From NCBI GenBank assembly GCA_027331445.1, contig DAHWUD010000002.1:77018-141017 (forward strand): 64,000 nucleotides of DNA, given 5' to 3'. The notes under the pieces were generated by a model. That model saw nothing but the letters and a program-made list of their open reading frames with translations, was not told the DNA's origin and searched no databases. Below are positions 14,190 through 61,346 of the stretch, one piece after another; the stretch's first letter is position 1, and each line of letters opens with the position of its first letter. Source of the stretch: Candidatus Amesbacteria bacterium. Lineage in GTDB: Bacteria; Patescibacteriota; Microgenomatia; CAZETR01; Amesbacteraceae. Position numbers and translations under genes: made by a program.

Positions 14190-15161
14190 TTATTTACGTG
14201 TTACGACCTTCCTCACCGCCTCTTTGATCTTGGTCACACTCATCCCGTACTTTTCCAACAATTCCTCCGGTTGTCCCGACTCTCCAAAGCTGTCCGGCAT
14301 CCCCACAAATTCCATCGGCACGGGAAAATTTTGGGCCAGTACTTCGGCGACAGCCGATCCCATTCCTCCCATCACCTGGTGCTCCTCCACCGTCACCACC
14401 GCCCCGCATTTTTGCGCCGCTTCAATAATTGTTTTTTTATCCATCGGCTTTATGGTGTGATTGTTTATTACTATCACTTCCACTCCTTCATCTTTTAATT
14501 CCTTCGCCGCGATCAGACTTTGATACACCAGCGGCCCACACGCCACAATTGCCACGTCATTTCCATATTCCTGAAACACTTCAGCTTTTCCAATTTCAAA
14601 CGGTGTCTCCGTCGTGGTTACTACCGGCGTCTTTTCTCTGGCCAGCCGCAAATAAAACGGCCCCGCCCATACCGTTCCCGCCAGGGTCGCTTTTTTGGTC
14701 TCTATACTGTCGCACGGTACCACCACGGTCATCTGCGGCAACACCCGCATGATCGCTATATCCTCGAGCGCCTGGTGGGTTGCCCCGTCCGGCCCCACCG
14801 ACACCCCGGCATGTGCTCCCGCAATTTTTACCGGCAGGTTGGAATAAGCGACCGCCACCCGCGCCTGGTCCCACGACCTGCCCGGCGAAAATACGGCATA
14901 CGAGGAGACCCAGGGAATTTTTCCGGCCGCCGCCAGCCCCGCCGCCACCCCCATCATGTTCTGCTCCGCTACCCCGCATTCAATAAATCTCTCCGGCCAC
15001 TTTTTGCTAAATTCCAGCACCCGCGTCGATTCCGCCAAATCCGCCGTTAGCACCACCACCCGTTTATCTTTTTCTCCCAGTTCCATCAATCCCTCTCCGT
15101 ACCCGTTCCTGATCGGCACCCGCTCCACCTCCGCTTCAAACAACTTCGGATTAAGTTTCAT
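14190..15161 (-). CDS. Transketolase, C-terminal subunit (pyrimidine-binding + C-terminal domains)
   Basis: GVAEQNMMGVAAGLA, PDGATHQ. 323 aa, typical of split transketolase C subunit. Confidence 0.9.
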   Translation of the reverse strand: MKLNPKLFEAEVERVPIRNGYGEGLMELGEKDKRVVVLTADLAESTRVLEFSKKWPERFIECGVAEQNMMGVAAGLAAAGKIPWVSSYAVFSPGRSWDQARVAVAYSNLPVKIAGAHAGVSVGPDGATHQALEDIAIMRVLPQMTVVVPCDSIETKKATLAGTVWAGPFYLRLAREKTPVVTTTETPFEIGKAEVFQEYGNDVAIVACGPLVYQSLIAAKELKDEGVEVIVINNHTIKPMDKKTIIEAAQKCGAVVTVEEHQVMGGMGSAVAEVLAQNFPVPMEFVGMPDSFGESGQPEELLEKYGMSVTKIKEAVRKVVTRK

Positions 15162-15164
15162 ATA

Positions 15165-16655
15165 ATGTCATCATACATGATCACTTGGGCCAAGCACCAT
15201 TTTCTCCTTCTATTATTACTGTTATTTCTCGCCACCCGCCTCATAAATTTGACCCTGCTCCCTATTTTCAGCGATGAAGCCAACTATTTGGACTGGGGCT
15301 GGCGCGGTCTCCACGGCGTCCCTTTCCACTCGCTATATGACGCCAAACAGCCCCTTCTTATGTGGCTTTTTGGTCTTGGCGAAGAGATTTTTCCTGATCC
15401 CCTGTTTGGCGCCCGCTTTGTCTCAACTCTCACGGGTCTGGCTTCCATTCTGGCCGTTTATGCTCTTGCCGTCCGCCTCTTTGACAAAACCACCGCCTAT
15501 CTTTCCGTGCTTTTCTATACTTTCATTCCCTTTTTTATTTTTTTCGATCGCCAGGCTCTCATGGAATCATCTCTGACCGCCGTCGGCCTGTGGACGTTTT
15601 ATTTTCTCCTGAAATTTTTCTCCCGGCCCCGCCTCCTCCCCGCCCTGGTCATTGGCGTTCTGCTCGGCCTGGGTTTTTTTATCAAAACCTCCGCCGCCGT
15701 TTTCATCCTGGCTTTTGCTCTCATCGTCCTTCTTGGCCGCTCCTGGAAACTACTTACCCTTTCCTTGGCCTCAGCCATTGCTTTTCTCCTGGTTGATTCT
15801 CCCCTTTTATTTCAGTCGCTTTTTTGGTCTACTTTCACCCGCAATTCCCAGTATTCCTTCACCCTCCCTGAACTGCTGCATTTCCCCCTCCTCACCTGGC
15901 TCACTCATTTGTATATCAACTTCCAAATCTTACTCATTAACTTCACCCCCCTGGTCCTTCTTTTTATCCTTGTCGGCCTTATTCGTATCCGTCTGCCCCG
16001 GCTATATTACTACTGGCTGTTTATTCCCTTAATCATTTTTTCTCTTACCTCCCGCACCGCCGGTTATCTCTCCTTCCGCTACCTCACCCCGTTTATCCCT
16101 CTGTTTATCTTTCCTCTGGCCGCTTACCTAAAATCCCGTCGCATCCTACTTATACTCACTCTTGCCCTCCCCATTATTGCTGCCGTCACCCTCATTTTCT
16201 CCCCCGTTTCCTACTTTCAGATCAAATCCCGCCTCACTCCTTATTCTTACATCTCCGATTACGTCACCGGCTTTGACACCGGCTATCAGGTCAACGCCCT
16301 GGTAAGCCGCCTAGACACTCTCACCGGCAACCAGCCCTCGTACATTGCCATGGCCGTTCATGCCTTCAATCCCGAAGCCGCTCTCCTCGCCTACTACCGC
16401 AAGTCATCTCTCCTCACTCCCGTCTTTCTTGACGCCAAACTTTTCCCCGCCGACCTCTCCTCCCGTTATGACTGTCTGTCCGTCAACCAGCCCCTCTATT
16501 TTGTCGCCAAGTTGAACGACACCGCCGGTCTGGCCAAATTCCTCACCCCGGTCACCGTCGTCAAAAATTCCTACAATCCGGATTATTCCACCATTTATAC
16601 TCTCAAAACCAATTGCCCCCCTGACCGCACTGCCAACATCAGCCCTACTCAGTAG
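15165..16655 (+). CDS. GT-C fold glycosyltransferase (ArnT/PMT-like, family GT39/GT83), polytopic membrane protein
   Basis: First extracytoplasmic loop has the SDEANYLDWGW motif (DE catalytic pair). About 12 hydrophobic helices. Antisense to the tkt operon, lying between tktN and tktC. Confidence 0.75.
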   Translation: MSSYMITWAKHHFLLLLLLLFLATRLINLTLLPIFSDEANYLDWGWRGLHGVPFHSLYDAKQPLLMWLFGLGEEIFPDPLFGARFVSTLTGLASILAVYALAVRLFDKTTAYLSVLFYTFIPFFIFFDRQALMESSLTAVGLWTFYFLLKFFSRPRLLPALVIGVLLGLGFFIKTSAAVFILAFALIVLLGRSWKLLTLSLASAIAFLLVDSPLLFQSLFWSTFTRNSQYSFTLPELLHFPLLTWLTHLYINFQILLINFTPLVLLFILVGLIRIRLPRLYYYWLFIPLIIFSLTSRTAGYLSFRYLTPFIPLFIFPLAAYLKSRRILLILTLALPIIAAVTLIFSPVSYFQIKSRLTPYSYISDYVTGFDTGYQVNALVSRLDTLTGNQPSYIAMAVHAFNPEAALLAYYRKSSLLTPVFLDAKLFPADLSSRYDCLSVNQPLYFVAKLNDTAGLAKFLTPVTVVKNSYNPDYSTIYTLKTNCPPDRTANISPTQ

Positions 16656-17496
16656 CGATTTTTCCCCCCAAACTCCGCAGTTCCGTCAGCGCTTTTTCCG
16701 CCTCTTCCCGGTTAGGCGGCTTCCCGTGCCACTCAAATTTTCCTTCCATAAAATCCACGCCTTTCCCCGGGATAGTATGAGCAACAATCACCGTCGGGTT
16801 TTCAAATATCGCCCTGGCTTTGTCCAGCGCGTCAGCTATCTCCCGGAAATTATGTCCGTCTATCTCCACGACTGACCAATTAAACGCCCGGAATTTATCC
16901 GTTAATGGCTGAAGCGGCATGATATCTTCCGTGTATCCGTCGATCTGGATATTATTCCGGTCCACAATCGCCGTCAGATTGTGCAGGTTGAGTTTCCCCG
17001 CCAGCATGATCGCTTCCCAGTTTGCTCCCTCTTCCAATTCCCCGTCTGACAAAATGGTGTATACCCGGTAGCTCTTCCCGTCCCTCATCCCGGCTATGGC
17101 TTGCCCAATGCCCTGGGCTAGCCCCTGGCCCAAGGGCCCCCCGCTGTTTTCAATCCCTGGCAATTCGCGGTAGTGCGGATGCCCCTGCAGCCGGCTCCCC
17201 AGTTTCCTAAGGGTCATCAGTTCCTCCTTGGGAAAATAACCGGCCTGGGCCAGCGTCGCGTACAGCCCCGGACAAATATGTCCGCAGGACAAAATTATCC
17301 TGTCCCTCCCCTCATTCCAGGGATCTACCGCCCTTACGTTGACCTCTCCCGACAGGTACAGCGTCGTAAACACGTCCGCCATCCCCAATGACCCCGCCGA
17401 ATGTCCGGACCCGGCCGCCAACAGCATGGATATGATGTTTTCCCGGATTTCGTTCGCCGCGGTTTCCAATTCCTTAACTTTTTGATCACTCAGCAT
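16645..17496 (-). CDS. Transketolase, N-terminal subunit (TPP-binding)
   Basis: GSGHSAGSLGMADV, GHICPGLY, SDGELEEG TPP-binding signature. 283 aa. Confidence 0.9.
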   Translation of the reverse strand: MLSDQKVKELETAANEIRENIISMLLAAGSGHSAGSLGMADVFTTLYLSGEVNVRAVDPWNEGRDRIILSCGHICPGLYATLAQAGYFPKEELMTLRKLGSRLQGHPHYRELPGIENSGGPLGQGLAQGIGQAIAGMRDGKSYRVYTILSDGELEEGANWEAIMLAGKLNLHNLTAIVDRNNIQIDGYTEDIMPLQPLTDKFRAFNWSVVEIDGHNFREIADALDKARAIFENPTVIVAHTIPGKGVDFMEGKFEWHGKPPNREEAEKALTELRSLGGKIATE

Positions 17497-50162: not shown

Positions 50163-50480
50163 GTGAATAACGTTCGTCTTTATTTTCCTCCCACCAGCCA
50201 GTTTACCCACCTTTCCTACTGGACTCCCACCACTTTCATTGCCGCCTTCGTCAACCTTATTCTCGTCGCTTCCGCCGTTTCCTCCTTTTTTATGCTCCTG
50301 ATCGGCGGCCTGCGTTTTATTATCGCCGGCGGTGACCGGGACGCCACCACAGCCGCCGGCCGCACCATCGCCAATGCCCTGATCGGCTTGGTCATTGTCT
50401 TTTCCGTCTACGGCCTGATGAACCTTCTCAGTGATTTCTTCGGCGTCCGCCTGCTGCAGTACACTATCATTAGTATCTGA
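50163..50480 (+). CDS. Small two-TM membrane protein (possible TrbC/VirB2-like pilin fold)
   Basis: 105 aa. Two hydrophobic helices joined by a GG..AGGDRDATTAAGRT loop. Assignment is tentative. Confidence 0.35.
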   Translation: MNNVRLYFPPTSQFTHLSYWTPTTFIAAFVNLILVASAVSSFFMLLIGGLRFIIAGGDRDATTAAGRTIANALIGLVIVFSVYGLMNLLSDFFGVRLLQYTIISI

Positions 50481-50483
50481 CCC

Positions 50484-51197
50484 TCAGTATCCCGAAAACT
50501 CTTCGGCTTTGATCTTCTCCGGTCTCACCTTCTCCTGCTCCAACAGCTCCCGCATCGCCCCCACCATCCCGGCCGGCCCTGACAGGTAGTAAATCGGTTC
50601 CGTCAAATCTTTGACATACCGGCCCAGCATCTCCCGGTTAATGTGCCCCTTTTCCCCGTTCCAACTCTGTTCTCCCGCCGCCGTCATCACCGGCACAAAG
50701 GTAAATTTCGGATTTCCTTCCGCCAGCGCCTGCAGGTCTCCCAAAAACACTCCCTCCTGCGGCGTTCTGTTGGCATATATCAATATTATTTTCCCCGCCC
50801 GTTTTTCCTGCATTGCCTGGGCAATCATGCTCCGCACCGGCGTGATCCCGATTCCCCCGGTCAGAAACACCGCCGGCGCTGTCCCCTCATGCAGCCCAAA
50901 ACTTCCGTACGGGCCGCTCATTTTTATTTGGCCTCCCACCGGCAAACTTTTCAGCCCCCGTTTAAACGCCGTATCCCGCATCCTGGTGGCAATTACCAAC
51001 TCCTTTTCGTACGGGGCATGCGCCAACGAAAAAATCCTCTCCTTCCCCTCTTTGTCCGTCTCGATCGGATCCGCCAGCTCAAATTTTGCGAACTGTCCGG
51101 CTTTAAATTCAAATCCCTCCGGCTTTTTGAAGTGAAATGCCATTGTCCCGCTGGCCACCTCCTCTTTTTCCGCCAGCGTCACCATATACTCGGCCAC
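50484..51197 (-). CDS. FNR-like oxidoreductase (FAD-binding FR-type + NAD(P)-binding domains)
   Basis: RIFSLAH (RxYS FAD motif), GGIGITP (NAD(P) motif). No Fe-S cysteine cluster. Confidence 0.8.
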   Translation of the reverse strand: MAEYMVTLAEKEEVASGTMAFHFKKPEGFEFKAGQFAKFELADPIETDKEGKERIFSLAHAPYEKELVIATRMRDTAFKRGLKSLPVGGQIKMSGPYGSFGLHEGTAPAVFLTGGIGITPVRSMIAQAMQEKRAGKIILIYANRTPQEGVFLGDLQALAEGNPKFTFVPVMTAAGEQSWNGEKGHINREMLGRYVKDLTEPIYYLSGPAGMVGAMRELLEQEKVRPEKIKAEEFSGY

Positions 51198-51263
51198 AAA
51201 ATCATTTTAACTCATTTCTGCCGTTTTTTTGACAGCCGGGCAAAATATGCTTAATCTTATCCT

Positions 51264-54131
51264 GTGGCTGCCGATCTCTCCTCCTTTCTCACCCCCCGTT
51301 CCGTCACCGTCATCGGTGCCTCCCGCTCCCCCGAAAAAGTCGGCGCCATCGTCCTTAAAAATCTACTGGACTTCCACTTTCCCGGCCATATCTACCCCGT
51401 CAACCCCCAAACCGACTCCCTCCAAAACCTGCCTTGTTTCAAATCCGTCGCAAATCTCCCCGAAGTTCCCGATTTAGCCATCGTGGCCTTGCCCGCCGCC
51501 GCCGTCATTGACACTCTCACCCAAATCGGCACCAAAGGTATTTCCAACGTCGTCGTTTTTTCTGCCGGCTTTAAGGAGATCGGCCCCGACGGCGCCCGGT
51601 TGGAGCAGCAATTGACAGATATTGCCGCCAGGTATCACCTGCGCCTTTTGGGTCCCAATTGTCTGGGCTTTATCAACGAGTCCGCCTCTCTTAACGCCAC
51701 CTTCGCCCTCTCCGCCCATCAGTCCGGCAACCTGCGCTTTATTTCTCAATCCGGAGCCATCGCCGCCGCCCTGTTTGACTGGTGTCAGTCCGTCGGCCTG
51801 GGCTTTTCTCAGTTTATTACCCTGGGCAACAAACCCGTCCTCAACGAAAACGATTTTCTAACTGCCTTCGCTGCCGCTTCACTGCCCCCTCCCGCTCCCG
51901 GCCTCTCTTCCGTTTCCCCCATTGGCCTTTATCTGGAATCCATTTCCGACGGCCCGGAATTTGTCCGCCTGACCACCCAAATCAGCCGCACTCAGCCCAT
52001 TTTCATCATTAAGCCCGGCAAAACTCCCGCCGCCGCCGCCGCCATGCAGTCCCACACCGGAGCCATAGCCGGAGCCGACGATATCCTTGACACTGCCCTG
52101 GCTCAGGCCCACGTCGAAAGGTGCGCTACTCTGGAGGATTTCTTCGATCTCTCCCGCGCCCTGGCCTGGGAAAATGCTCCCGCCGGTCCCCGCGTCGCCG
52201 TCATCAGTAACGCCGGCGGCCCCGCCGTCTTAACCGCTGACGCCATCGCCTCCTCCGGACTCAAATTGGCCGAGCTGGACGCCGCCACTAAGGAAAAGCT
52301 GCAGTCTGTTCTTCCCCGCAGTGCCAGTATCAGAAATCCCATTGATGTTTTGGGCGACGCCCTGGCTGACCGCTACGCCGCCGCCGCCGACACCGTTCTA
52401 GCTACCGGCCAAGCCGACGCTTTATTGGTCATTCTCACCCCCCAGGTTATGACCCAGGTTGACCGCACCGCCCAGCTGATCAGCGACCTCTCCCGCAAAT
52501 ACCCCCAGCCCATTTTCTGCTCTTTCATCGGCGGCCGGCTGGTCCATGAAGGCGAACGTATCCTGAATCAAAATCTTATCCCTTCTTTCCGCTTCCCCGA
52601 GCGGGCCGTCGCCGCTATTTCCGCCATGTGGCATTGGCAATCCACCCGCACCGCCCCGGCTGCAATTTCCGGCTCCGGTCCGGCATCGCCGGCCGAAGCC
52701 GAGGGCGCAAGTCCAGACTCCACCCGCATCCACCAGATTGTCACCGCCGCCGAGGACAGCCACCATCCCGCCCTGGATAATCTCGAAACCAATGAAATCA
52801 TGTCCCTTCTGGGCTTGCCCACCCCTCCCACCGCTGCCGTCCCCACCCTGGAATCTGCTCACCAGTTCGCCACTCAAACCGGCTGGCCCGTAGTTCTCAA
52901 ACTCTCTTCCCCGGGTCTTTTACACAAAGCCCATATGGGCGGCGTCATCACCGGTATCAATAACGCCTCCCAGCTCGAACTGGCTTGGGATCGCCTCAAT
53001 CATGCCGCCGCCCAACTTCCTCCTGCCGCCCACGATCACCTTCGTTACCAAATCCAGAAAGAGGCTACTTCCGGTATTGAAGTCATCGTCGGCCTGCGTG
53101 TCGATCCGACTTTTGGCCCGGTTCTCCTCTTTGGCGCCGGCGGTCAGTTGGCCGAACTGGTGGCCGATAAAAACCTGAAAATCCTCCCCGTCTCCCGCGA
53201 CCAGGTCAAAGATTTAGTAAGTAAATCCAAGGTTTTCCGTCTGCTCCAACCCCAGCCAGGCGAGCCGGAATATGCCCTCGATCAACTCTACGACCTCATC
53301 GTCAATCTTACCCGCCTCATTCCCCTGCTCCCCCAGGCTTCGGATATTGAAGTCAATCCCGTCATTGTTACCCACAATCACGTCTGGGCCGTTGACGCCA
53401 AGATTCTTTTAACCGGCATCGCCTCCCGCCCCGCCGTCTCTCCCCAATTCCACACCGCTGTTCTCACCGACCACACCCCCCTGGCCGGTAAATTCCATTA
53501 CTTTGAATTCACTACTCCGGAGCCCTTCGTCTCCCGCCCCGGTCAATACGTCAGCGTCAAAGTCGCCCCCGATCGCATCAACAGCTACTCTATTGCCGAC
53601 CGTCCCGCAGACAATAAGTTTACCCTGCTCGTGGACACCGCTCCCGGGGGCCCCGGTTCCAAATTCTTTGACAATTTACAGCCTCAGGACAAAGTGGCCT
53701 TCCTCGGTCCGTTCGGCGTCTTTACCCTCCAGCCCGACGACGGCGCGCAGCGGATTCTTTTCTTAGGTACCGGCTCCGGCTGCAGCCCCTTAAGATCCAT
53801 TCTGGAAGCCGCCCTCAAACACCCCGACCTTAAAGTCCCCATCGACTTTTACTTTGGCCTCCGGCATACTGATGATGTTTTCTGGCAGGATTATTTCCAA
53901 AAATTATCCGTTGATCACCCCAACTTCCATTTCAATTTTGTCCTTTCCCAACCCGACGCCGCTTGGCACGGCCAGGCCGGCCATATTACCGAGCTTTTGG
54001 AAAAGGAGGTCCCCGATGCCACTCACTGCAGCGCTTATCTTTGCGGCAACCCTAAAATGATCGACGAAGCCACCCAAATTTTACTTTCCAGAAACTGTCC
54101 GGAGGGCCGGATCTACACCGAAAAATTCTAA
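51264..54131 (+). CDS. ADP-forming acetyl-CoA synthetase (NDP-forming acyl-CoA synthetase, fused alpha/beta) with a C-terminal FNR-like FAD/NAD(P)-binding domain
   Basis: CoA-binding N-domain (VTVIGASRSPEKVGA), succinyl-CoA-synthetase-like and ATP-grasp segments. From about nt 53445: RINSYSIA (FAD motif), GTGSGCSP, YLCGNPKM. 955 aa. Confidence 0.85.
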   Translation: MAADLSSFLTPRSVTVIGASRSPEKVGAIVLKNLLDFHFPGHIYPVNPQTDSLQNLPCFKSVANLPEVPDLAIVALPAAAVIDTLTQIGTKGISNVVVFSAGFKEIGPDGARLEQQLTDIAARYHLRLLGPNCLGFINESASLNATFALSAHQSGNLRFISQSGAIAAALFDWCQSVGLGFSQFITLGNKPVLNENDFLTAFAAASLPPPAPGLSSVSPIGLYLESISDGPEFVRLTTQISRTQPIFIIKPGKTPAAAAAMQSHTGAIAGADDILDTALAQAHVERCATLEDFFDLSRALAWENAPAGPRVAVISNAGGPAVLTADAIASSGLKLAELDAATKEKLQSVLPRSASIRNPIDVLGDALADRYAAAADTVLATGQADALLVILTPQVMTQVDRTAQLISDLSRKYPQPIFCSFIGGRLVHEGERILNQNLIPSFRFPERAVAAISAMWHWQSTRTAPAAISGSGPASPAEAEGASPDSTRIHQIVTAAEDSHHPALDNLETNEIMSLLGLPTPPTAAVPTLESAHQFATQTGWPVVLKLSSPGLLHKAHMGGVITGINNASQLELAWDRLNHAAAQLPPAAHDHLRYQIQKEATSGIEVIVGLRVDPTFGPVLLFGAGGQLAELVADKNLKILPVSRDQVKDLVSKSKVFRLLQPQPGEPEYALDQLYDLIVNLTRLIPLLPQASDIEVNPVIVTHNHVWAVDAKILLTGIASRPAVSPQFHTAVLTDHTPLAGKFHYFEFTTPEPFVSRPGQYVSVKVAPDRINSYSIADRPADNKFTLLVDTAPGGPGSKFFDNLQPQDKVAFLGPFGVFTLQPDDGAQRILFLGTGSGCSPLRSILEAALKHPDLKVPIDFYFGLRHTDDVFWQDYFQKLSVDHPNFHFNFVLSQPDAAWHGQAGHITELLEKEVPDATHCSAYLCGNPKMIDEATQILLSRNCPEGRIYTEKF

Positions 54132-54133
54132 CC

Positions 54134-55846
54134 ATGTCTGCCCCAATTTATTCTCTCAAAATCGGCGGCCAGGCCGGCCAGGGTATCAAATCATCGGGCC
54201 AGCTGATAGCCAAAGTCGCCTCCCGTTCCGGCTATCATATCCATACCTATACCGAGTTCCCCTCCTTAATCCGCGGCGGTCACAACATCACTCAGGTCCT
54301 CTTCTCTCCCGATGAAATTGCCGCCCCCCTCCGTCAGACCGACCTGCTCATTGCTCTCAATCAGGATACTATTACCCGCCACCTCGCCGAACTGGTCTCC
54401 GGTTCCGGTCTGTTGTTTGATGCCGACAAAAAATTCCGCACCGCCGGCGCCGCCCCCGGCGTCCGTCTTCTCCCTGTGCCTTTGGCCAAACTATCAGGCG
54501 GTCAGGAATTATTGATCAACACCGTCGCCGTCGGCGCCGCCCTGGCTCTCCTCGGCGGCCGGCTGGATACCCTTAACGACCTCCTGCGGGCCGAGTTTGC
54601 CGACAAAGGCGATGCCGTCATCCGTCCCAACCTCGAAGCCGCCGCCGCCGGTTTCGATTTTGCCGCCCGGAATTTTGCCGCCCAAGTAGAGCCCCGTCTC
54701 ACCCCCCTGCCCGACCGCCCGCGTCAGATGATTGTCAACGGAGCCGAGGCCGTGGCTCTGGGAGCCATCGCCGGCGGTCTGCAGTTTGCCGCCATCTATC
54801 CCATGTCTCCCATCTCCGGCATTCTCCGGGTCTTAGCGCAGTACCAGGCGGAATATGGCTATATCTACAAACAGCCCGAGGATGAAATTTCTGCCGTCAA
54901 CATGGCCGTCGGCGCCGGCTTTGCTGGAGCGAGGGCCATGACCGCCACCAGTGGCGGCGGTTTTTGCCTCATGACCGAGGGCTATGGCCTGGCCGGCATG
55001 ACCGAAACTCCGGTGGTCATTGTCGAAGGCATGCGTCCCGGTCCCGCTACCGGCCTGCCCACCTGGTCTGCCCAGAGCGATCTGCAGTTTATTCTTCATG
55101 CCCACCAGGGTGATTTCCCCCGCATTGTTCTGGCCGCTTCCGACATCCGCGACGCCTTCTATCTCACCCGCCAGGCCTTCAACCTGGCCGCCAAATATCA
55201 GACCCCCGTAGTCGTCATCATCGACAAAGACCTTTGCGACGACGATCACAGCTATCCCGTATTCGACAATTCCGACTTTAAGCTAGACCGCGGCAAATTC
55301 ACTTCCGACTTCAACCCCGGCTTCGCCCGCTACTACATCGAATCCGACGGTATCTCTACTAGAAGCGCCCCCGGTACCGGCAACTTCTTCATCGCCAATT
55401 CCGACGAGCATAACCAGCAGGGTTTCAGTTCGGAAGACATCTCCGACGTCGTCTCCCAGCAGGCCAAGCGCCTGCGCAAGTTGGATACCTGTGCCCAAAC
55501 CGACATGCCTGCTCCCCAGCTCATCGGCCCCCCAGACGCTCCCCTGACTTTAGTCTCCTGGGGCAGTAACCGTGGCGCCGTCCTCCACGCCCTCCGGGAT
55601 TTTCCGGATGTGAATTACCTTCATCTCACCTGGATGAGTCCTTTCCCCACCACCGCCGTCACCTCACAGCTTTCCCGCGCCCGTCATATTATTGATATCG
55701 AATCCAACGCCACCGCCCAGCTGGCCCAGCTGATTGCCGCCCAAACCGGTATCACGATCACCGACCACCTGCTCAAATTCGACGGCCGCCCCTTTTTCCC
55801 CGATGAAATCTCCGCCAAAATTAATTCTGTTCTCCATCCCGCCTGA
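54134..55846 (+). CDS. 2-oxoacid:ferredoxin oxidoreductase alpha subunit (gamma+alpha fusion)
   Basis: N-terminal PorG-like KIGGQAGQGIKSSG, then a PFOR domain I/II pattern. 570 aa. Confidence 0.9.
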   Translation: MSAPIYSLKIGGQAGQGIKSSGQLIAKVASRSGYHIHTYTEFPSLIRGGHNITQVLFSPDEIAAPLRQTDLLIALNQDTITRHLAELVSGSGLLFDADKKFRTAGAAPGVRLLPVPLAKLSGGQELLINTVAVGAALALLGGRLDTLNDLLRAEFADKGDAVIRPNLEAAAAGFDFAARNFAAQVEPRLTPLPDRPRQMIVNGAEAVALGAIAGGLQFAAIYPMSPISGILRVLAQYQAEYGYIYKQPEDEISAVNMAVGAGFAGARAMTATSGGGFCLMTEGYGLAGMTETPVVIVEGMRPGPATGLPTWSAQSDLQFILHAHQGDFPRIVLAASDIRDAFYLTRQAFNLAAKYQTPVVVIIDKDLCDDDHSYPVFDNSDFKLDRGKFTSDFNPGFARYYIESDGISTRSAPGTGNFFIANSDEHNQQGFSSEDISDVVSQQAKRLRKLDTCAQTDMPAPQLIGPPDAPLTLVSWGSNRGAVLHALRDFPDVNYLHLTWMSPFPTTAVTSQLSRARHIIDIESNATAQLAQLIAAQTGITITDHLLKFDGRPFFPDEISAKINSVLHPA

Positions 55847-55848
55847 CT

Positions 55849-56703
55849 ATGCAGCTCTCCGACTTAGCCACCGTCTGCTCCCCCAATTGGTGCCCCGGCT
55901 GCGGCGACCTGGCCATTTGGGGCGCCTTTAAAAGTGCTTGTGTCAGCGAGGGTTGGGACAGTACCAATACCGCCCTGGTTGCCGGTATCGGCTGTCATGG
56001 CCACCTTTTAAACTTCACCAAACTCGTCTCCTTCGAGGGTTTGCACGGCCGGGCCATCCCCCTGGCCTTCGGCCTCAAAATGTCCAATCACCGCCTCAAT
56101 GTCTTTGTCTTTACCGGTGACGGAGACTGTCTGTCCGAAGGCGGCAATCACTTTATTCACGCCTGCCGCCGCAATCCCAATCTCAAGATCTTTATCCACG
56201 ACAACGCCATTTATGGCTTAACTACCGGCCAAACCTCTCCTACCTCTCCCTTGGGTTTCAAATCCAAATCCACCCCCGAAGGCAACGCCGATTTTCCCCT
56301 CAATCCTCTGGCCCTGGCCATTGCCTCCGGCGCCACTTTCGTCGCCCGCGGCTACGCCGGCGATATTCCCGGCCTTTCTGCCCTCATGATCAAAGCGCAG
56401 CAGCATCAGGGCCTGGCCGTTGTGGACATCCTCCAACCCTGCGTCACCTTCAACAAGGAATACACTCATACTTTTTATCGCGAAAACACCTATCAGTTAG
56501 ACGGGTCATACCAGCCTACCGACAAAATCGCGGCTTTCCAAAAAGCCCAGGAATGGGGTCTCAAAAGTATTCCCCTGGGTATTTTCTACGCCGTCGATTC
56601 CCCCACTTATGAATCCCGTTTTCCCCAAATTGCCGCCACTCCCCTGGTCGATCATTCCCCGGACAGGCCGGATCTTTCCGGATTGTTCCGCAAATTCGTC
56701 TAA
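55849..56703 (+). CDS. 2-oxoacid:ferredoxin oxidoreductase beta subunit (TPP-binding)
   Basis: CPGCGD and GDGD TPP motifs. 284 aa. Confidence 0.9.
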   Translation: MQLSDLATVCSPNWCPGCGDLAIWGAFKSACVSEGWDSTNTALVAGIGCHGHLLNFTKLVSFEGLHGRAIPLAFGLKMSNHRLNVFVFTGDGDCLSEGGNHFIHACRRNPNLKIFIHDNAIYGLTTGQTSPTSPLGFKSKSTPEGNADFPLNPLALAIASGATFVARGYAGDIPGLSALMIKAQQHQGLAVVDILQPCVTFNKEYTHTFYRENTYQLDGSYQPTDKIAAFQKAQEWGLKSIPLGIFYAVDSPTYESRFPQIAATPLVDHSPDRPDLSGLFRKFV

Positions 56704-57278
56704 CTTTGTTTTTCTCTCACTCCGTACTTTTCCCAAAATACCATCTCTCCGATCGGCTTTCTGTTTTCTTCATTATGCGGTACCGGACTTCCCCGGATAT
56801 GTCCCAGTGCCAGACTCCCGATCACCACCTGTTCCCGCGGGATTTCCAGCGTCAAATATGTCGTCTCTCTATCCATCGTCACCCAGCACGCCCCGATCCC
56901 CAGGCTCCACGCCGCCAGCCACATGTCTTGTAACGCTGCCGCCGCCGCGTATTCATACTGGTTATGTTCAGCTAGCCAAACGATCAGCTCTTTTCGTTCC
57001 TGGTTTTGCACCTCCTGCTCCGTCATTACCTGTTTTTCCGTGCTCACCACAATGCATACTTTGGCAGATCGCATGAAGCCTCCCTCTTTCGCCGTCTGCG
57101 CGAGCGTCTGTATGGTTTCCGGCTTTTTTACCACCACCAGGTGCCAAGGTTGGGAATCCAGCGGGCTGGGTGACCACCGCCCCGCCTCCAGAATTTGTGC
57201 CAACATTTCATCACCCACTTCCTCTTCCGTCCACGCCCGTACCGACCGCCGGGATTTTATGGCCTCGATTACTTCCAT
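56700..57278 (-). CDS. Nitroreductase family protein
   Basis: IKSRRSVRAWTEE N-terminus. 192 aa. Confidence 0.75.
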   Translation of the reverse strand: MEVIEAIKSRRSVRAWTEEEVGDEMLAQILEAGRWSPSPLDSQPWHLVVVKKPETIQTLAQTAKEGGFMRSAKVCIVVSTEKQVMTEQEVQNQERKELIVWLAEHNQYEYAAAAALQDMWLAAWSLGIGACWVTMDRETTYLTLEIPREQVVIGSLALGHIRGSPVPHNEENRKPIGEMVFWEKYGVREKQS

Positions 57279-57339
57279 CGTCCCATTATAATTTAGTTAT
57301 TGATCAACCGGAAGATAAACTTTATACTCCTTATCACTT

Positions 57340-57621
57340 ATGGCTGATGCTAATCCTTCCCCCGCTCCTCAGATGGACACCGACAAAGAAGTCATCGTCG
57401 GCAAATACAAAATCAAGGTTCTGCGTAGCGCCTGTATCGGCGCCGCTTCGTGTGTCGCCGTTTCCCCGGGCACTTTTTCCCTCGATCCCCAAAATAAAGC
57501 CGTCGTCAATTCCGGTTCCACCGACGTTCCCGAGAATATTCTCATGGCCGCCCAATCCTGTCCCACCAAAGCCATAGTCATCATCGATACCGAGACCGGA
57601 CAACAGGTTTGGCCCGCTTAA
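57340..57621 (+). CDS. Small ferredoxin (Pyrococcus-type single-cluster Fd with Ala in place of the second ligand)
   Basis: ACIGAASC...SCP cysteine spacing as in 4Fe/3Fe single-cluster ferredoxins. 93 aa. Confidence 0.6.
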   Translation: MADANPSPAPQMDTDKEVIVGKYKIKVLRSACIGAASCVAVSPGTFSLDPQNKAVVNSGSTDVPENILMAAQSCPTKAIVIIDTETGQQVWPA

Positions 57622-57624
57622 TTT

Positions 57625-58524
57625 ATGTCTAAAGGTTACCTTCTCGCCGCCGCCGCCGCCCTCATTTCCGGCGTTTCCATTTTTCTCAACAAATACGCTG
57701 TTACCGCCATTGTCCAGCCCTTAGTCTTTACCGCCGTCAAAAACTCCCTCGTCGCCCTCCTCATCCTGGCTCTGATCTTCGCCTCCGGTAAATGGCGCGG
57801 GGTTAAACAGCTTAGCCGCCGGCAGCTGCTGCTTCTGCTCGCCATCGGTATTATCGGCGGCTCCCTGCCTTTCTATCTCTTCTTTACCGGCTTGTCCCTC
57901 ATTCCCGCAGTCACCGGGGCCATTATTCAAAAGACTTTGGTGGTTTGGGTCGCCCTGCTGGCTTTTCCCTGGCTCAAAGAAAAGCTCTCCCCCGCCCACT
58001 GGGCCTTGGTCGTGCTCCTCTTTGCCGCCAACATCGCCGTCGGCGGTTTTCCCGGATTTAAACTCTCTATAGGAGAGCTGTTTGTCCTTCTGGCCACTCT
58101 CCTCTGGGCCGTAGAAACCATCCTCGCCAAACTCGTCCTCCCCCGTGTCGACCCGGACTTGGTCACTGCCGCCAGAATGGTCCTGGGATCGGCCATTTTA
58201 TTGACCGTCTCCGCCGTCGCCCAGCCCGCCGCCCTCCTGCATGTGTCCGCTCTGACTCTCACTCAGTGGTCATGGATCATTCTCACCGCCGTTACCTTAC
58301 TGCTTTATGTCACCACCTGGTATCGCGCCCTGAAATTTGCTCCCGCCACCGCCGTCACTGCCATTCTGGTCGCCTCCACTCTGGTTACCAATGTTCTCTC
58401 CGCCGTTTTCGTCACCCATTCTCTCTCCCGCCCCCTCGCCGTCCAGTCCCTGGCTATCGCCGCCGTCGTCGTCGCCTTTAGCCTTCTGCCTCTAGCACGG
58501 CCTCGCTCCACCGTTTCAGGTTAG
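57625..58524 (+). CDS. EamA/DMT superfamily transporter (10 TM)
   Basis: 299 aa with two EamA-like halves. Confidence 0.75.
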   Translation: MSKGYLLAAAAALISGVSIFLNKYAVTAIVQPLVFTAVKNSLVALLILALIFASGKWRGVKQLSRRQLLLLLAIGIIGGSLPFYLFFTGLSLIPAVTGAIIQKTLVVWVALLAFPWLKEKLSPAHWALVVLLFAANIAVGGFPGFKLSIGELFVLLATLLWAVETILAKLVLPRVDPDLVTAARMVLGSAILLTVSAVAQPAALLHVSALTLTQWSWIILTAVTLLLYVTTWYRALKFAPATAVTAILVASTLVTNVLSAVFVTHSLSRPLAVQSLAIAAVVVAFSLLPLARPRSTVSG

Positions 58525-59188
58525 CTTCCTCCCGCTCCGTCAATATTTTCACCGCCTGCTTCCAGTGCACAGCTACCGTCTCCCCTACTTTTACCCCCGG
58601 CAACATCTCTTCCCTATATTTATATTTCCCCTCCAAAACAGTCAGCTTTTTTTTACCTTTCATTTTGGCCAAACTGATCAGATTTACCGTTAACCGGGCC
58701 CGGCCTACCTCCGTCACTTTTCCCCACCGGATCATGCAGTTGTTGATCGTCTCCATATTAAACGGCACCGACCCGCTGGCCCGCCCCACTCCCACATGCA
58801 GCACCTGGAACAAATGACAGGGAATAAATTTTTTGGGTTTATCCCTCTCCAATTCCGCCACCAGCCACTCCGGCACCCCCTGCTTGGCCAAATTCGAAAG
58901 TAGTAGCTTGTAATGCTCTCCCTTTGCCTTCTTCAGTTCCTCATTTCCCAGCCAGTACGCCTCTACCCCGGCATAACTCAGCTTATCCTTTCCGGTCACC
59001 GCTGTGAGTGTCTCCAGATAGGGGTTTAATACGATAAATTTACCCACTTCCTTCGCAATTCCCTCGCACGCTCCCTTTTCTATACATTCCCGAAACTTGG
59101 CAGGTGCCGTTCCCCGCCCGCAGTACCCCAGACTATTCGGCGGCAGTGCGAATCGGGCCGCCAGTTGTAATGCTTTTTTCTCCGCCAT
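58478..59188 (-). CDS. Hypothetical Cys-containing protein downstream of the hydrogenase genes
   Basis: 236 aa. YCGRG...C...C cluster near the N-terminus. No recognised domain. Confidence 0.45.
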   Translation of the reverse strand: MAEKKALQLAARFALPPNSLGYCGRGTAPAKFRECIEKGACEGIAKEVGKFIVLNPYLETLTAVTGKDKLSYAGVEAYWLGNEELKKAKGEHYKLLLSNLAKQGVPEWLVAELERDKPKKFIPCHLFQVLHVGVGRASGSVPFNMETINNCMIRWGKVTEVGRARLTVNLISLAKMKGKKKLTVLEGKYKYREEMLPGVKVGETVAVHWKQAVKILTEREEANLKRWSEAVLEAEG

Positions 59189-59205
59189 TCGCTATATTGT
59201 ACAGC

Positions 59206-59607
59206 ATGACCGTTTACGTCTTCGGTAACCCCGACGTCCCCCCGGATGATCGCGCCTTCATTGTCACCGCCCGCCTGAAATCCGTCTTTCCCGCTATCGA
59301 TTTTCAGCCTGTTGCCCCCAATGCCGACCTTCCCTTCGCCGACGTGGATCATGTCCGCCTTATCGACGTCGTCGCCGGCCTTCCCCACGCCGCTTTAATT
59401 GACCAAACTGACCTGGGCCGTTTAATCACTTCCCCCTCTGTTACTGCCCACGACTATGATTTGGGGTTTCAGCTCAGGTACTTAAAAAAACTCGGCCGGC
59501 TCGGCCGCGTCTCCATTCTCGGTCTCCCACCTCATGGCCGGCTGAATTATTCCCTGATCCAGTCAATCTTCAAAAAATTGGTCGCGCAGGACATGCAGGG
59601 GTCGTAA
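59206..59607 (+). CDS. Hydrogenase maturation protease (HycI/HybD/FrhD family)
   Basis: Start taken at the internal ATG: MTVYVFGNPDVPPDDRAFIVTARL...VRLIDVV, matching the GNxxxxDDgxG...vDA pattern. The track ORF 59104-59607 begins upstream inside the neighbouring gene. Confidence 0.6.
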   Translation: MTVYVFGNPDVPPDDRAFIVTARLKSVFPAIDFQPVAPNADLPFADVDHVRLIDVVAGLPHAALIDQTDLGRLITSPSVTAHDYDLGFQLRYLKKLGRLGRVSILGLPPHGRLNYSLIQSIFKKLVAQDMQGS

Positions 59608-60851
59608 GCCCGGATAATCACTTCCGCCGCGTGATGTAATTCTTCTTCGCTCTGCCCGATATTCTCATTGAAATATTTCTTCAGGTCGTTTTCGATCGTG
59701 ATCTGGTTTTGGGCCGTCGGCACGATCACTTCATACCCTTCGATCATCCCTTTGTCGTTAACTTTTGCCATATGATACAACACCCCCCGCGGCGCCTCCA
59801 CCACTCCGACTCCCTCCCCGGCCTGCCACGGCTTTCTCACCGGCTTTTCTTCCGGGTTGATCTGGATGGACTTGAGAATGTCTATGGCGTCGTCCACGCA
59901 TTGCAGCACTTCCACCGCCTGCGCCAGGTTGTTATGGTAAATGTTCTCTGATGGGAACACCGTTAGGTACTCTCCTGCGTCCGCCGCCGTCCGGGAATTA
60001 AGTAAGTCTTTGTTGAAATTCATGCGCGCGAGCGCCCCCACCAGGTAATCCTCGTGTGTCTGTGCCAGTTTATATCCCTCCGCTTGTGAATACGGGATCA
60101 CTACCTGCTCCAAAAAGTTTTTAAACTCTTTTTCGTAAAACCGCCTCCCGTCGGAAATCCTCAGCTCCCCTTCCAGAAAATCATATTGCCGGTCATTTCT
60201 CAGATACATGTAATCGCTGTTGCGCACCAAACTGTCCTTGGCCTCAAAAAAAGTCTTTATCCCCCGCAGCACTTGCGGCCGGATGGCTTCCAGCCGGGTG
60301 ACCAGCTCCGGAAATTTCGTGGGATCGGGGTTTCTCAGAAACCCTCCCACCGTCGGCCAGGGTGCGTGAATGGCGGCCCCGATAACCACATTGGTAATAT
60401 CCGTCCCCAGCCTTTTGATATCAAATGAGTCGTGCAGCAGCACGTGCCCGATATCGGCGTCGTCATCCGGAATCTCCAAAATGGAATCCAGCCCCAGAAT
60501 ATCCGGCAGCACAAAAAAATACAGGTGCAATGCGTGATCCCGAATCATCAGTCCGTCATACGCCAGCCGCCGTAGCAATTTGCTCTGCTCTGACAATTCG
60601 ATCCCCTGCGACCTTTCCACCGCCTCCAGGCTGGCAAATAGGTGCGCCACGGAGCACGTTCCGCAGATTCGCGACAAAAACGCCGGCACGGCGATTATTG
60701 GCTTGCCGACTACCGCCTCCGTGTAAAACCGCCGGTAGTCCTGGACGATAAATTTCAAATCCGTCACCGTGTCATTTTCAATCTTCACTGCCAGTCCGGC
60801 CGACCCCTCGATTTTGGTTACGTTTTCAATCGTGATATCTCCGCTGTGCAT
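59547..60851 (-). CDS. [NiFe]-hydrogenase large subunit (group 3-like, cytoplasmic)
   Basis: N-terminal RICGTCSVAH (L1) and C-terminal DPCMSCATN (L2) Ni-Fe ligand motifs. 434 aa. Confidence 0.85.
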   Translation of the reverse strand: MHSGDITIENVTKIEGSAGLAVKIENDTVTDLKFIVQDYRRFYTEAVVGKPIIAVPAFLSRICGTCSVAHLFASLEAVERSQGIELSEQSKLLRRLAYDGLMIRDHALHLYFFVLPDILGLDSILEIPDDDADIGHVLLHDSFDIKRLGTDITNVVIGAAIHAPWPTVGGFLRNPDPTKFPELVTRLEAIRPQVLRGIKTFFEAKDSLVRNSDYMYLRNDRQYDFLEGELRISDGRRFYEKEFKNFLEQVVIPYSQAEGYKLAQTHEDYLVGALARMNFNKDLLNSRTAADAGEYLTVFPSENIYHNNLAQAVEVLQCVDDAIDILKSIQINPEEKPVRKPWQAGEGVGVVEAPRGVLYHMAKVNDKGMIEGYEVIVPTAQNQITIENDLKKYFNENIGQSEEELHHAAEVIIRAYDPCMSCATNFLKIDWIRE

Positions 60852-60854
60852 ATT

Positions 60855-61346
60855 TTATGCCGGGACAATGCTAAATAGTTTCAGGTATTTCGTCAGCATC
60901 GCCATAAACGTCTCCGCATTCATCGGACACCCGGGCACCGCATCGTCTATCTTGATTACTTCCTCGAGCTTCCGCACTTTCTGGCTGTAATCAAAATTCT
61001 TCATATACCATTGGATTCTTTCCGTAATCATCTCGTCTTTAAAATCGTTTCTGGATGCCGACGGCAGCCCCGTGCACGCGCACGCTCCGATCGCCACCAC
61101 ATACTTGGCGTTATCCCGGATTTTTTTTACCTCCGCCTCCTGCTTCGCCGACGAAATCGCCCCTTCCACAAACGCCACATCTAAACCCTCGATGGAATTT
61201 TTAGTTTTCAGTTGCCTGACATACTTAAAATCTACCAGTTTCTTCCATTCATCCAGGTGATCGTTCAGAAGCTCCGTAAACAAAATCGTGCTGTCCTCGC
61301 AGCAGGTAAATGAGAACCAGCCCACGGCCAATTTTTTCCCGTCCAT
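60855..61346 (-). CDS. [NiFe]-hydrogenase small subunit (group 3 delta-type)
   Basis: FTCCEDS...GACACTG...GCPMN cysteine pattern. 163 aa. Confidence 0.8.
   Translation of the reverse strand: MDGKKLAVGWFSFTCCEDSTILFTELLNDHLDEWKKLVDFKYVRQLKTKNSIEGLDVAFVEGAISSAKQEAEVKKIRDNAKYVVAIGACACTGLPSASRNDFKDEMITERIQWYMKNFDYSQKVRKLEEVIKIDDAVPGCPMNAETFMAMLTKYLKLFSIVPA

Follow-up and report, generated by a model that had tools for sequence, protein, structure and literature searches.

In Pyrococcus and Thermococcus, fermentation runs through a chain of pyruvate:ferredoxin oxidoreductase (POR), ferredoxin, ADP-forming acetyl-CoA synthetase (ACS), a ferredoxin:NADP oxidoreductase and a group 3b sulfhydrogenase. 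The PNO enzymes of Euglena and Cryptosporidium consist of a PFOR fused to an FMN- and FAD-containing module of the P450-reductase type, with pyridine nucleotide as the final acceptor. Energy metabolism in the Patescibacteria (candidate phyla radiation, CPR), which hold a large share of bacterial diversity in minimal genomes, has been inferred almost wholly from annotation. The WWE3 genome paper (Kantor 2013) lists PFOR alpha and beta, an ADP-forming acetyl-CoA synthetase, a ‘ferredoxin oxidoreductase-like protein’ and a 3b-like hydrogenase, and does not mention a fusion (PMC3812714). The present analysis concerns a gene in a 64,000-nt stretch of a Candidatus Amesbacteria contig (the window), which joins a complete ADP-forming acetyl-CoA synthetase (ACD) to a module of the ferredoxin-NADP reductase (FNR) superfamily, directly upstream of the genes for the alpha and beta subunits of a 2-oxoacid:ferredoxin oxidoreductase (OFOR). 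Nucleotide positions refer to the window and residue numbers to the 955-aa fusion protein; coordinates are collected in Table 1. Public databases name the family ‘acetate-CoA ligase family protein’ or ‘acetyltransferase’, with a single entry called ‘acyl-CoA synthetase (NDP forming)/NAD(P)H-flavin reductase’. A full-text literature search found no description of an ACD-FNR fusion, the one apparent match (PMC13198582) being an unrelated arcC-OTC fusion and an AMP-forming ACS. Both halves come from well-known families with conventional chemistry; what is new is the fusion, which offers a hypothesis rather than a new principle.

The fusion gene is read in one continuous frame, without a stop or frame change, and the junction itself (AVDAKILL-TGIASRPAVS-PQFHTAVL) is likewise in a single frame. 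The N-terminus, MAADLSSFLTPRSV, agrees with the homologue consensus MxKDLTxLFSPKSV. Pfam places six domains on the protein, each above its gathering cut-off, and so bears out the preliminary description, made from the sequence alone, in which a complete ACD leads into an FNR-like FAD/NAD(P)H module: the C-terminal region matches the FNR-family models FAD_binding_6 and NAD_binding_1, the motifs quoted there were located (RINSYSIA, nt 53574-53597; GTGSGCSP, 53766-53789; YLCGNPKM, 54036-54059), and the module, said to start at about nt 53445, begins at P727 (nt 53442). A search of about 5.8 billion proteins turned up the fusion in at least 120 clusters, with identities of 52-67%, a coverage of 100% and, in nearly all of them, the same Pfam domain set. 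A scan of one genome per species yielded 76 loci, 63 of which hold a close copy of the FNR module; at 54 loci, from independent assemblies that include the closed WWE3 genome CP006914, ACD and FNR share one stop-free frame. An AlphaFold2 model built with 63 homologues has a mean predicted local distance difference test (pLDDT) score of 87.4. Its confidence holds to either side of the junction and dips only at the internal alpha-beta linker (residues 468-482), the phosphohistidine loop (~250-270) and the ACD-FNR linker (722-725, below 50). The trivial explanation, that a sequencing or assembly error, a frameshift or a missed stop has merged two neighboring genes, has a negligible probability, because an uninterrupted junction that recurs in so many clusters and assemblies excludes a chimeric assembly or local frameshift, and the continuous frame and the confident model tell against it as well. 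The fusion is therefore genuine.

The named sources of the fusion clusters are Woesebacteria, Levyibacteria, Roizmanbacteria, WWE3 or ‘Patescibacteria group’, and from the clusters and loci found the fusion appears confined to the Microgenomates/WWE3 part of the Patescibacteria. Many metagenome-assembled genomes (MAGs) with the cluster (L002, L003, L014-L017, L054 and others) go under the titles ‘uncultured Gammaproteobacteria’, ‘Pseudomonadales’, ‘Candidatus Saccharibacteria’ or ‘Woesearchaeota archaeon’. Since the sequences and their synteny group with Microgenomates/WWE3, these names are probably mistaken. In the MAG of L025, the frame is broken only in the ACD part, which falls into two frames near residue 415 (L025:7954-10078); this is either a sequencing frameshift or a pseudogene.

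The ACD half contains all five subdomains that define the superfamily, as found by Pfam, by alignment with PDB entry 8wzu and by Foldseek. Subdomains 1-2-5 (CoA_binding_2, Succ_CoA_lig, Ligase_CoA_2) come first, followed by an internal linker and the ATP-grasp region (subdomains 3-4). The single-chain ADP-forming 4-hydroxybutyrate-CoA ligase of Nitrosopumilus (8wzu) aligns at 394 bits over residues 6-704, ckcACD1 alpha and beta also align, and Foldseek superposes this half on 8wzu and 4xym with TM scores of 0.89-0.92. Both catalytic histidines, H264 and H554, are unchanged in all 63 homologues, and the SHTGA loop around H264 aligns with the SHTG of ckcACD1, 8wzu, 2csu and 9y43. Among the known counterparts, His254-alpha of ckcACD1 is the swinging-loop histidine, and the second histidine is His71-beta of P. 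furiosus ACS. H264 corresponds to H256 and H554 aligns with H535 of Nmar_0206, an active enzyme whose catalytic histidines lie on the swinging loop (H256) and in the ATP-grasp domain (H535; PMC11494057). Because both histidines are invariant, whereas PatZ lacks the SHTG segment in the alignment, the ACD half looks like an enzyme rather than a regulatory relic. A Pat-like inactive ACD domain was rejected on these grounds, and Pfam finds no GNAT domain in the fusion protein. Acetyl-CoA is the favored candidate substrate.

The FNR half is a module of minimal size with both superfamily domains. Its nearest characterized relatives are the reductase modules of GcoB (5ogx), NqrF, MMOR, BenC and Fre, and cytochrome b5 reductase is also among its PDB matches. 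In GcoB, NqrF, MMOR and BenC, electrons from NAD(P)H pass to a ferredoxin-type Fe-S domain, Fre being the exception. Y775 and S776 of the flavin motif are invariant among the 63 homologues. The position of the canonical RxYS arginine is N773 in 52 of these sequences, with R771 two residues upstream, while the 11 that have the canonical R773 have no R771; this reciprocal swap points to selection for keeping the arginine and argues for a displaced yet retained residue, putatively contacting the flavin phosphate. GGPGS is conserved at residues 795-799. In TGSG (836-839), T836 and G837 are invariant, S838 is found in 55/63 and G839 in 62/63, followed by P842 (55/63); the hydride-transfer C927 is present in 61/63, G928 and M932 are invariant, and the C-terminus E953-K-F955 is conserved, with an aromatic F/Y955 in 56/63. 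The GxGxxP nucleotide motif, the cysteine of the CG(P) motif and the flavin-stacking C-terminal aromatic are thus all present, and the module is predicted to bind flavin and NAD(P)(H). Its stretch following beta-2, GLRxxxD, is similar to that of NADH-specific NqrF as well as that of dual-specific Fre, and so does not single out NADH or NADPH as the preferred cofactor.

By family score, the best label appears to be ‘FNR-superfamily module’, outside the true ferredoxin-NADP reductase and hydrogenase-gamma/Nfn families. The ferredoxin-NADP reductase equivalogs give 30 bits against a cut-off of 600 (NF045929) and 33 against 635 (NF058510), the 25 families listed for the fusion protein do not include NF008178 (Fpr), and models of the hydrogenase-gamma/NfnA/PyrK type give 37-42 bits against cut-offs of 395-600. 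The fusion protein has no Fe-S cysteine motif anywhere along its length, its conserved cysteines being isolated and scattered. A relocated hydrogenase gamma subunit or NfnA-type module was ruled out by these low scores and by the lack of a 2Fe-2S cysteine motif. Among the best 150 FNR-family representatives, only ACD fusions, stand-alone forms of ~230 aa and 2Fe-2S-FNR (BenC-type) proteins occur, with no fusion to a 4Fe-4S ferredoxin or to OFOR. The divergently transcribed FNR-like gene just upstream of the fusion had been taken for a paralog of the fused module. With only 26% identity (72 bits) and a far-outgroup position in the tree of FNR modules, it is a distant superfamily relative instead, and a recent duplication of it as the origin of the module is ruled out.

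Genomic neighborhood analysis reveals a highly conserved order of ACD-FNR, OFOR-alpha, OFOR-beta and a ferredoxin with three cysteines (3-Cys), and the OFOR, ferredoxin and hydrogenase context is present as first described. Of 48 loci with enough flank, 45 have the start of OFOR-alpha no more than 200 nt from the FNR module; a same-strand ferredoxin gene is present in 40/45, and 24/32 encode a hydrogenase large subunit on the other strand no more than 10 kb away. In two of the three loci that lack an adjacent OFOR-alpha, inserted genes precede it: several short open reading frames (ORFs) of toxin-antitoxin- or PIN-type appearance in one (L010:10800-12950) and a gene for a 234-aa membrane protein in the other (L050:8140-9060). 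In the window, the gaps between the fusion gene and OFOR-alpha and between the two OFOR genes are 2 nt each. The OFOR, whose alpha subunit has 5b46 (StOFOR) and 6n2n as PDB relatives, is of the two-subunit Sulfolobus/Magnetococcus type without a ferredoxin-like delta subunit, and so needs an external electron acceptor. The ferredoxin is related to those of Thermotoga and Pyrococcus. Its CxxAxxC...CP motif, in which alanine replaces the second cysteine of the classical 4Fe-4S motif, and its C-terminal TETGxQVWP tail are common to nearly all 46 aligned ferredoxin genes, which suggests that it may hold a [3Fe-4S] or a 3-Cys-ligated cluster. The potential of this cluster would decide the direction of electron flow.

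Natural fission points show where the fusion can come apart, and they coincide with the inter-module linker. The linker varies in sequence, but the spacing from K713 to P727 is 12-14 residues in 57 of 63 homologues. At five loci the FNR module is unfused, and in each its gene lies directly upstream of OFOR. In three Levybacteria-like genomes (L027, L056 and L057), a 231-aa FNR gene with its own Met stands directly upstream of OFOR-alpha, and an AMP-forming acetate-CoA ligase (NF003313, 813 bits against a cut-off of 729) takes the place of the ACD. In L059, the ACD has decayed to a 26-aa C-terminal relic upstream (42% identity, E 0.014), and in L053, a single-cell genome, the ACD gene is complete (716 aa) and ends at a stop of its own, with a Pyr_redox_2 gene, FNR and OFOR coming after it in that order. 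A neighbor-joining tree places L027 as the sister of a fused Levybacteria sequence and L057 within the fused clade, so at least these two are secondary fissions, while L053 and L059 are basal. Two other Patescibacteria (L063, L064) have distant stand-alone FNRs with the same type of ferredoxin directly downstream and without OFOR. These arrangements argue that the constant partners of the FNR module are OFOR and ferredoxin rather than the ACD. An enzyme converting acetate or acetyl-CoA nevertheless appears to stay beside the FNR module even when swapped for a non-homologous one, and this replacement points to acetate/acetyl-CoA as the substrate of the ACD. The preliminary description proposed that acetate formation with its ATP yield is physically coupled to electron handling by NAD(P)H and ferredoxin. 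This is upheld in part: conserved synteny supports the NAD(P)H/ferredoxin link, whereas the physical coupling stays putative, with the split variants pairing FNR with OFOR and ferredoxin rather than with the ACD. The fusion may serve only 1:1 co-expression or co-localization.

Set beside the observed domain identities, intact catalytic motifs, conserved fusion and gene order, the account we hold to be probable, if well short of certain, is a bifunctional ACD-FNR that serves both products of OFOR, acyl-CoA and electrons. OFOR alpha/beta would convert pyruvate (or another 2-oxoacid) and CoA to acyl-CoA, CO2 and two electrons, the latter carried off by the small 3-Cys ferredoxin. The ACD part would turn acetyl-CoA, ADP and Pi into acetate, ATP and CoA by way of phospho-His264 and His554, and the FNR module, with flavin and NAD(P)(H) bound, would exchange electrons between ferredoxin, its likely partner, and the pyridine-nucleotide pool. 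Ferredoxin would act as the hub, likely also as partner of the two-subunit, diaphorase-less 3b-like hydrogenase. Each OFOR turnover gives a single acetyl-CoA together with a single pair of electrons, and a 1:1 fusion would supply the two downstream activities in matching amounts. An oxidative net direction is favored.

Several points weigh against this account. The FNR module scores about 30 bits where true ferredoxin-NADP reductase equivalogs demand 600, so a Fre-like free-flavin reductase activity is possible. If the ferredoxin holds a high-potential [3Fe-4S] cluster, reduction of NAD(P)+ or evolution of H2 would be disfavored. The substrate of the ACD is uncertain because TIGR02717 (acetate-CoA ligase alpha) gives 470 bits against a cut-off of 567, and its top structural relative, 8wzu, acts in the acid-activating direction. 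The AMP-forming ligase replacement hints at acetate activation, and the unfused variants indicate that the two halves need not be joined.

Some of these observations fit a reversed pathway, in which the ACD (or the AMP-forming ligase) activates acetate, FNR (with NAD(P)H) and/or hydrogenase (with H2) reduce ferredoxin, and OFOR works as a pyruvate synthase. The ligase substitution in L027, L056 and L057 agrees with such acetate assimilation, as does the fact that characterized relatives of the FNR type normally run from NAD(P)H to ferredoxin. Archaeal and protist ACDs, on the other hand, are typically catabolic, and the window encodes a glycolytic gene set that fits a sugar fermenter (PfkB, class I aldolase, GAPDH, PGK, a split transketolase and glycogen phosphorylase). 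Pyruvate synthesis requires ferredoxin near -500 mV, and neither NAD(P)H acting through a plain FNR nor a ferredoxin with three cysteines would be a good donor at so low a potential. AMP-forming ligases are also able to run in reverse in some anaerobes. The acid-activating enzyme that is the best structural relative of the ACD part (PMC11494057) and a WWE3 genome with the cluster (L022), which comes from acetate-amended sediment and has phosphoenolpyruvate synthase (PMC3812714), speak for assimilation, whereas these organisms have been characterized as fermenters with sparse biosynthesis (PMC3812714). Taking both sides, assimilation seems unlikely, though it deserves a serious hearing.

The bifunctional, oxidative reading places the ferredoxin between OFOR and FNR. 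A closer association can be imagined from the 2-nt intergenic gaps, the tightly kept linker length, the lack of an OFOR delta subunit and the position of FNR directly upstream of OFOR even when unfused: FNR would dock on OFOR beta and draw electrons from the [4Fe-4S] cluster of that subunit. The result would be a metabolon, a pyruvate:NAD(P)+ oxidoreductase whose tethered ACD picks up acetyl-CoA by channeling. An OFOR core with a linked FAD/NAD(P) module has precedents in the PNO enzymes and in phenylglyoxylate:NAD+ oxidoreductase. The dedicated ferredoxin gene conserved in 40/45 loci does not sit well with this, nor do the outgroup FNRs that pair with ferredoxin in the absence of OFOR (L063, L064), and we know of no module of this type in which a flavin draws single electrons straight from the OFOR cluster without FMN or Fe-S. 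A stable ACD-FNR/OFOR super-complex, flavin-linked directly or via bound ferredoxin and turning pyruvate into acetate, CO2, NAD(P)H and ATP, is accordingly improbable in our judgment. If true, it would be a soluble machine, exclusive to ultra-small bacteria, that does under anaerobic conditions what pyruvate dehydrogenase and a thiokinase do together.

The layout of the fusion protein also parallels that of PatZ, an ACD-like alpha-beta body followed by a C-terminal domain and the top Foldseek match, and the linker is short and of fixed length. These features would suit a redox sensor, in which binding of NAD(P)H or NAD(P)+ to the FNR module gates the ACD, a mirror image of PatZ, whose ACD-like domain controls the effector at the C-terminus. 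Residues conserved in the module are, however, catalytic and not merely binding ones (S776, C927, the C-terminal aromatic), the module survives as a stand-alone gene beside OFOR after loss or replacement of the ACD, and the ACD part is catalytically intact, unlike PatZ (PMC12184503). A purely regulatory role therefore seems very doubtful.

These results bear on how the annotation of Microgenomates/WWE3 is read, where the ATP-yielding acetate step is annotated just as ‘acetate-CoA ligase’ and the attached redox module has been overlooked. If the FNR module is the ferredoxin:NAD(P) link, it would fill a gap in the electron balance of these organisms and would account for the connection between OFOR electrons, NAD(P)H from glycolysis and a hydrogenase that lacks diaphorase subunits. 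The four small genes, which can be expressed in E. coli, would then form a compact, testable unit of fermentative energy conservation.

Table 1. Coordinates of the fusion gene, its parts and associated genes (window positions unless a residue range or another locus is given).
Feature	Position	Strand	Details
ACD-FNR fusion gene, whole	51264..54131	+	955 aa; GTG start; TAA stop at 54129-54131
ACD part	51264..53411	+	aa 1-716; Pfam, PDB 8wzu alignment, Foldseek
CoA_binding_2	aa 12-138		Pfam 1e-22
Succ_CoA_lig	aa 155-300		Pfam 8e-36
His264 codon, SHTGA loop, swinging-loop phosphohistidine	52053..52055	+	alignment
Ligase_CoA_2	aa 311-460		Pfam 3e-8
ATP-grasp_5	aa 498-715		Pfam 2e-51
His554 codon (LLHK), second catalytic histidine, ATP-grasp	52923..52925	+	alignment
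Inter-module linker TGIASRPAVS	53412..53441	+	aa 717-726, 10 residues
FNR-superfamily module	53442..54128	+	aa 727-955, 229 aa
FAD_binding_6	aa 733-820		Pfam 5e-8, 33.5 bits
NAD_binding_1	aa 833-936		Pfam 2e-17, 64.1 bits
OFOR alpha, fused gamma-alpha	54134..55846	+	570 aa; TIGR03710 583 bits vs cut-off 483
OFOR beta, thiamine pyrophosphate (TPP), one [4Fe-4S]	55849..56703	+	284 aa; TIGR02177 297 bits vs 262; PF02775, PF12367
Nitroreductase-family gene	56700..57278	-	PF00881; between OFOR-beta and ferredoxin gene
Mono-cluster ferredoxin, CxxAxxC...CP (3-Cys)	57340..57621	+	93 aa; Pfam Fer4_13/Fer4_15
NiFe hydrogenase, minimal, group-3b-like	59547..61346	-	large subunit 59547-60851; small subunit 60855-61346, 163 aa
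Stand-alone FNR-like gene, divergently transcribed	50484..51197	-	237 aa; Pfam
AMP-forming acetate-CoA ligase genes in Levybacteria-like genomes	L027:2468-4225, L056:8180-9982, L057:8263-9985		NF003313
Pyr_redox_2 flavoprotein, NDH-2-like/disulfide-reductase-like	L053:8261-9487		408 aa; between ACD and FNR genes

The nitroreductase gene between OFOR-beta and ferredoxin, whose stop overlaps that of OFOR-beta by 4 nt, is found at the same position in L002, L003 and L005. In related loci this minus-strand slot is recurrently occupied by a nitroreductase or a stand-alone FNR-like gene; the window holds both, the latter shifted upstream of the fusion gene. These two genes may provide additional electron sinks. 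The hydrogenase genes sit about 2 kb past the ferredoxin gene and 5.4 kb past the fusion gene. The large subunit is closest to group 3b sulfhydrogenases, the small subunit covers just the proximal-cluster part of sulfhydrogenase delta, and no beta/gamma diaphorase subunits are encoded nearby. NifU-like, SufS and SufBD genes lie upstream. The adjacent ORF 59104-59607 (+) is conserved (homologue L042:10780-12015, +), has no Pfam or NCBIfam match and carries an N-terminal GN(P/E)D...D and a later HDYDLGFQL; by eye it resembles a hydrogenase maturation endopeptidase, a putative assignment. A promoter and terminator scan of 50400-58700 gave counts no higher than in shuffled sequence.

Elsewhere in the window, the transketolase is split into 14190-15161 (-) and 16645-17496 (-), with a PMT_2 glycosyltransferase-like gene, 15165-16655 (+), between the two parts. 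The window as a whole (1-64000) shows extreme strand asymmetry, with 11,898 G against 22,412 C. The GC skew is -0.21 to -0.46 in all 2-kb bins irrespective of gene orientation, which is much stronger than the usual replication skew. At third codon positions, plus-strand genes have a skew of about -0.5 to -0.6 and minus-strand genes one of +0.22 to +0.54, and amino-acid composition differs by strand, plus-strand products being rich in P/S/T/Q/H and minus-strand products in G/E/K.

Among the systems closest to this locus, the Pyrococcus/Thermococcus chain has the same set of activities, which is here encoded in one neighborhood in compact form. In contrast to that chain, a plain FNR fold on the ACD serves here as the NAD(P) module instead of an enzyme of the SuDH/Nfn type, the OFOR is of the two-subunit Sulfolobus type, and the hydrogenase lacks beta/gamma and has a truncated small subunit. 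Compared with PNO, the OFOR subunits are separate genes, FNR sits on the ACD and a separate ferredoxin is conserved; Pfam and NCBIfam find no flavodoxin/FMN domain in either the fusion protein or the OFOR. With GcoB, NqrF, MMOR/MmoC, BenC and Fre, the C-terminal module shares the flavin beta-barrel and NAD(P) Rossmann fold at a minimal ~230 aa, together with the YS, GGxGS, GTGxxP and CG...M motifs and the C-terminal Phe. It differs from them in having no fused 2Fe-2S domain, in an RxYS arginine shifted by two in most members, in reading CGN where known modules read CGP, and in being joined to an ACD.

The known ACDs (ckcACD1, 4xyl/4xym; P. furiosus ACS I/II; Nmar_0206, 8wzu) share with the fusion protein the five subdomains, the alpha-beta order of 8wzu and both histidines, and the fusion protein adds its 229-aa C-terminal FNR module; no Foldseek PDB match covers both parts. 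The PatZ/Pat acetyltransferases (9isq, 9it0) likewise consist of a ~700-aa ACD-type alpha-beta body with a C-terminal domain. In PatZ the catalytic histidine has been lost (H254 to L245; PMC12184503) and the C-terminal domain is a GNAT, whereas here the ACD is intact and the appended domain is an FNR module. The FNR module would thus be a second kind of C-terminal partner for the ACD scaffold, after the GNAT of Pat, and in this case one attached to an ACD that is predicted to be still catalytic.

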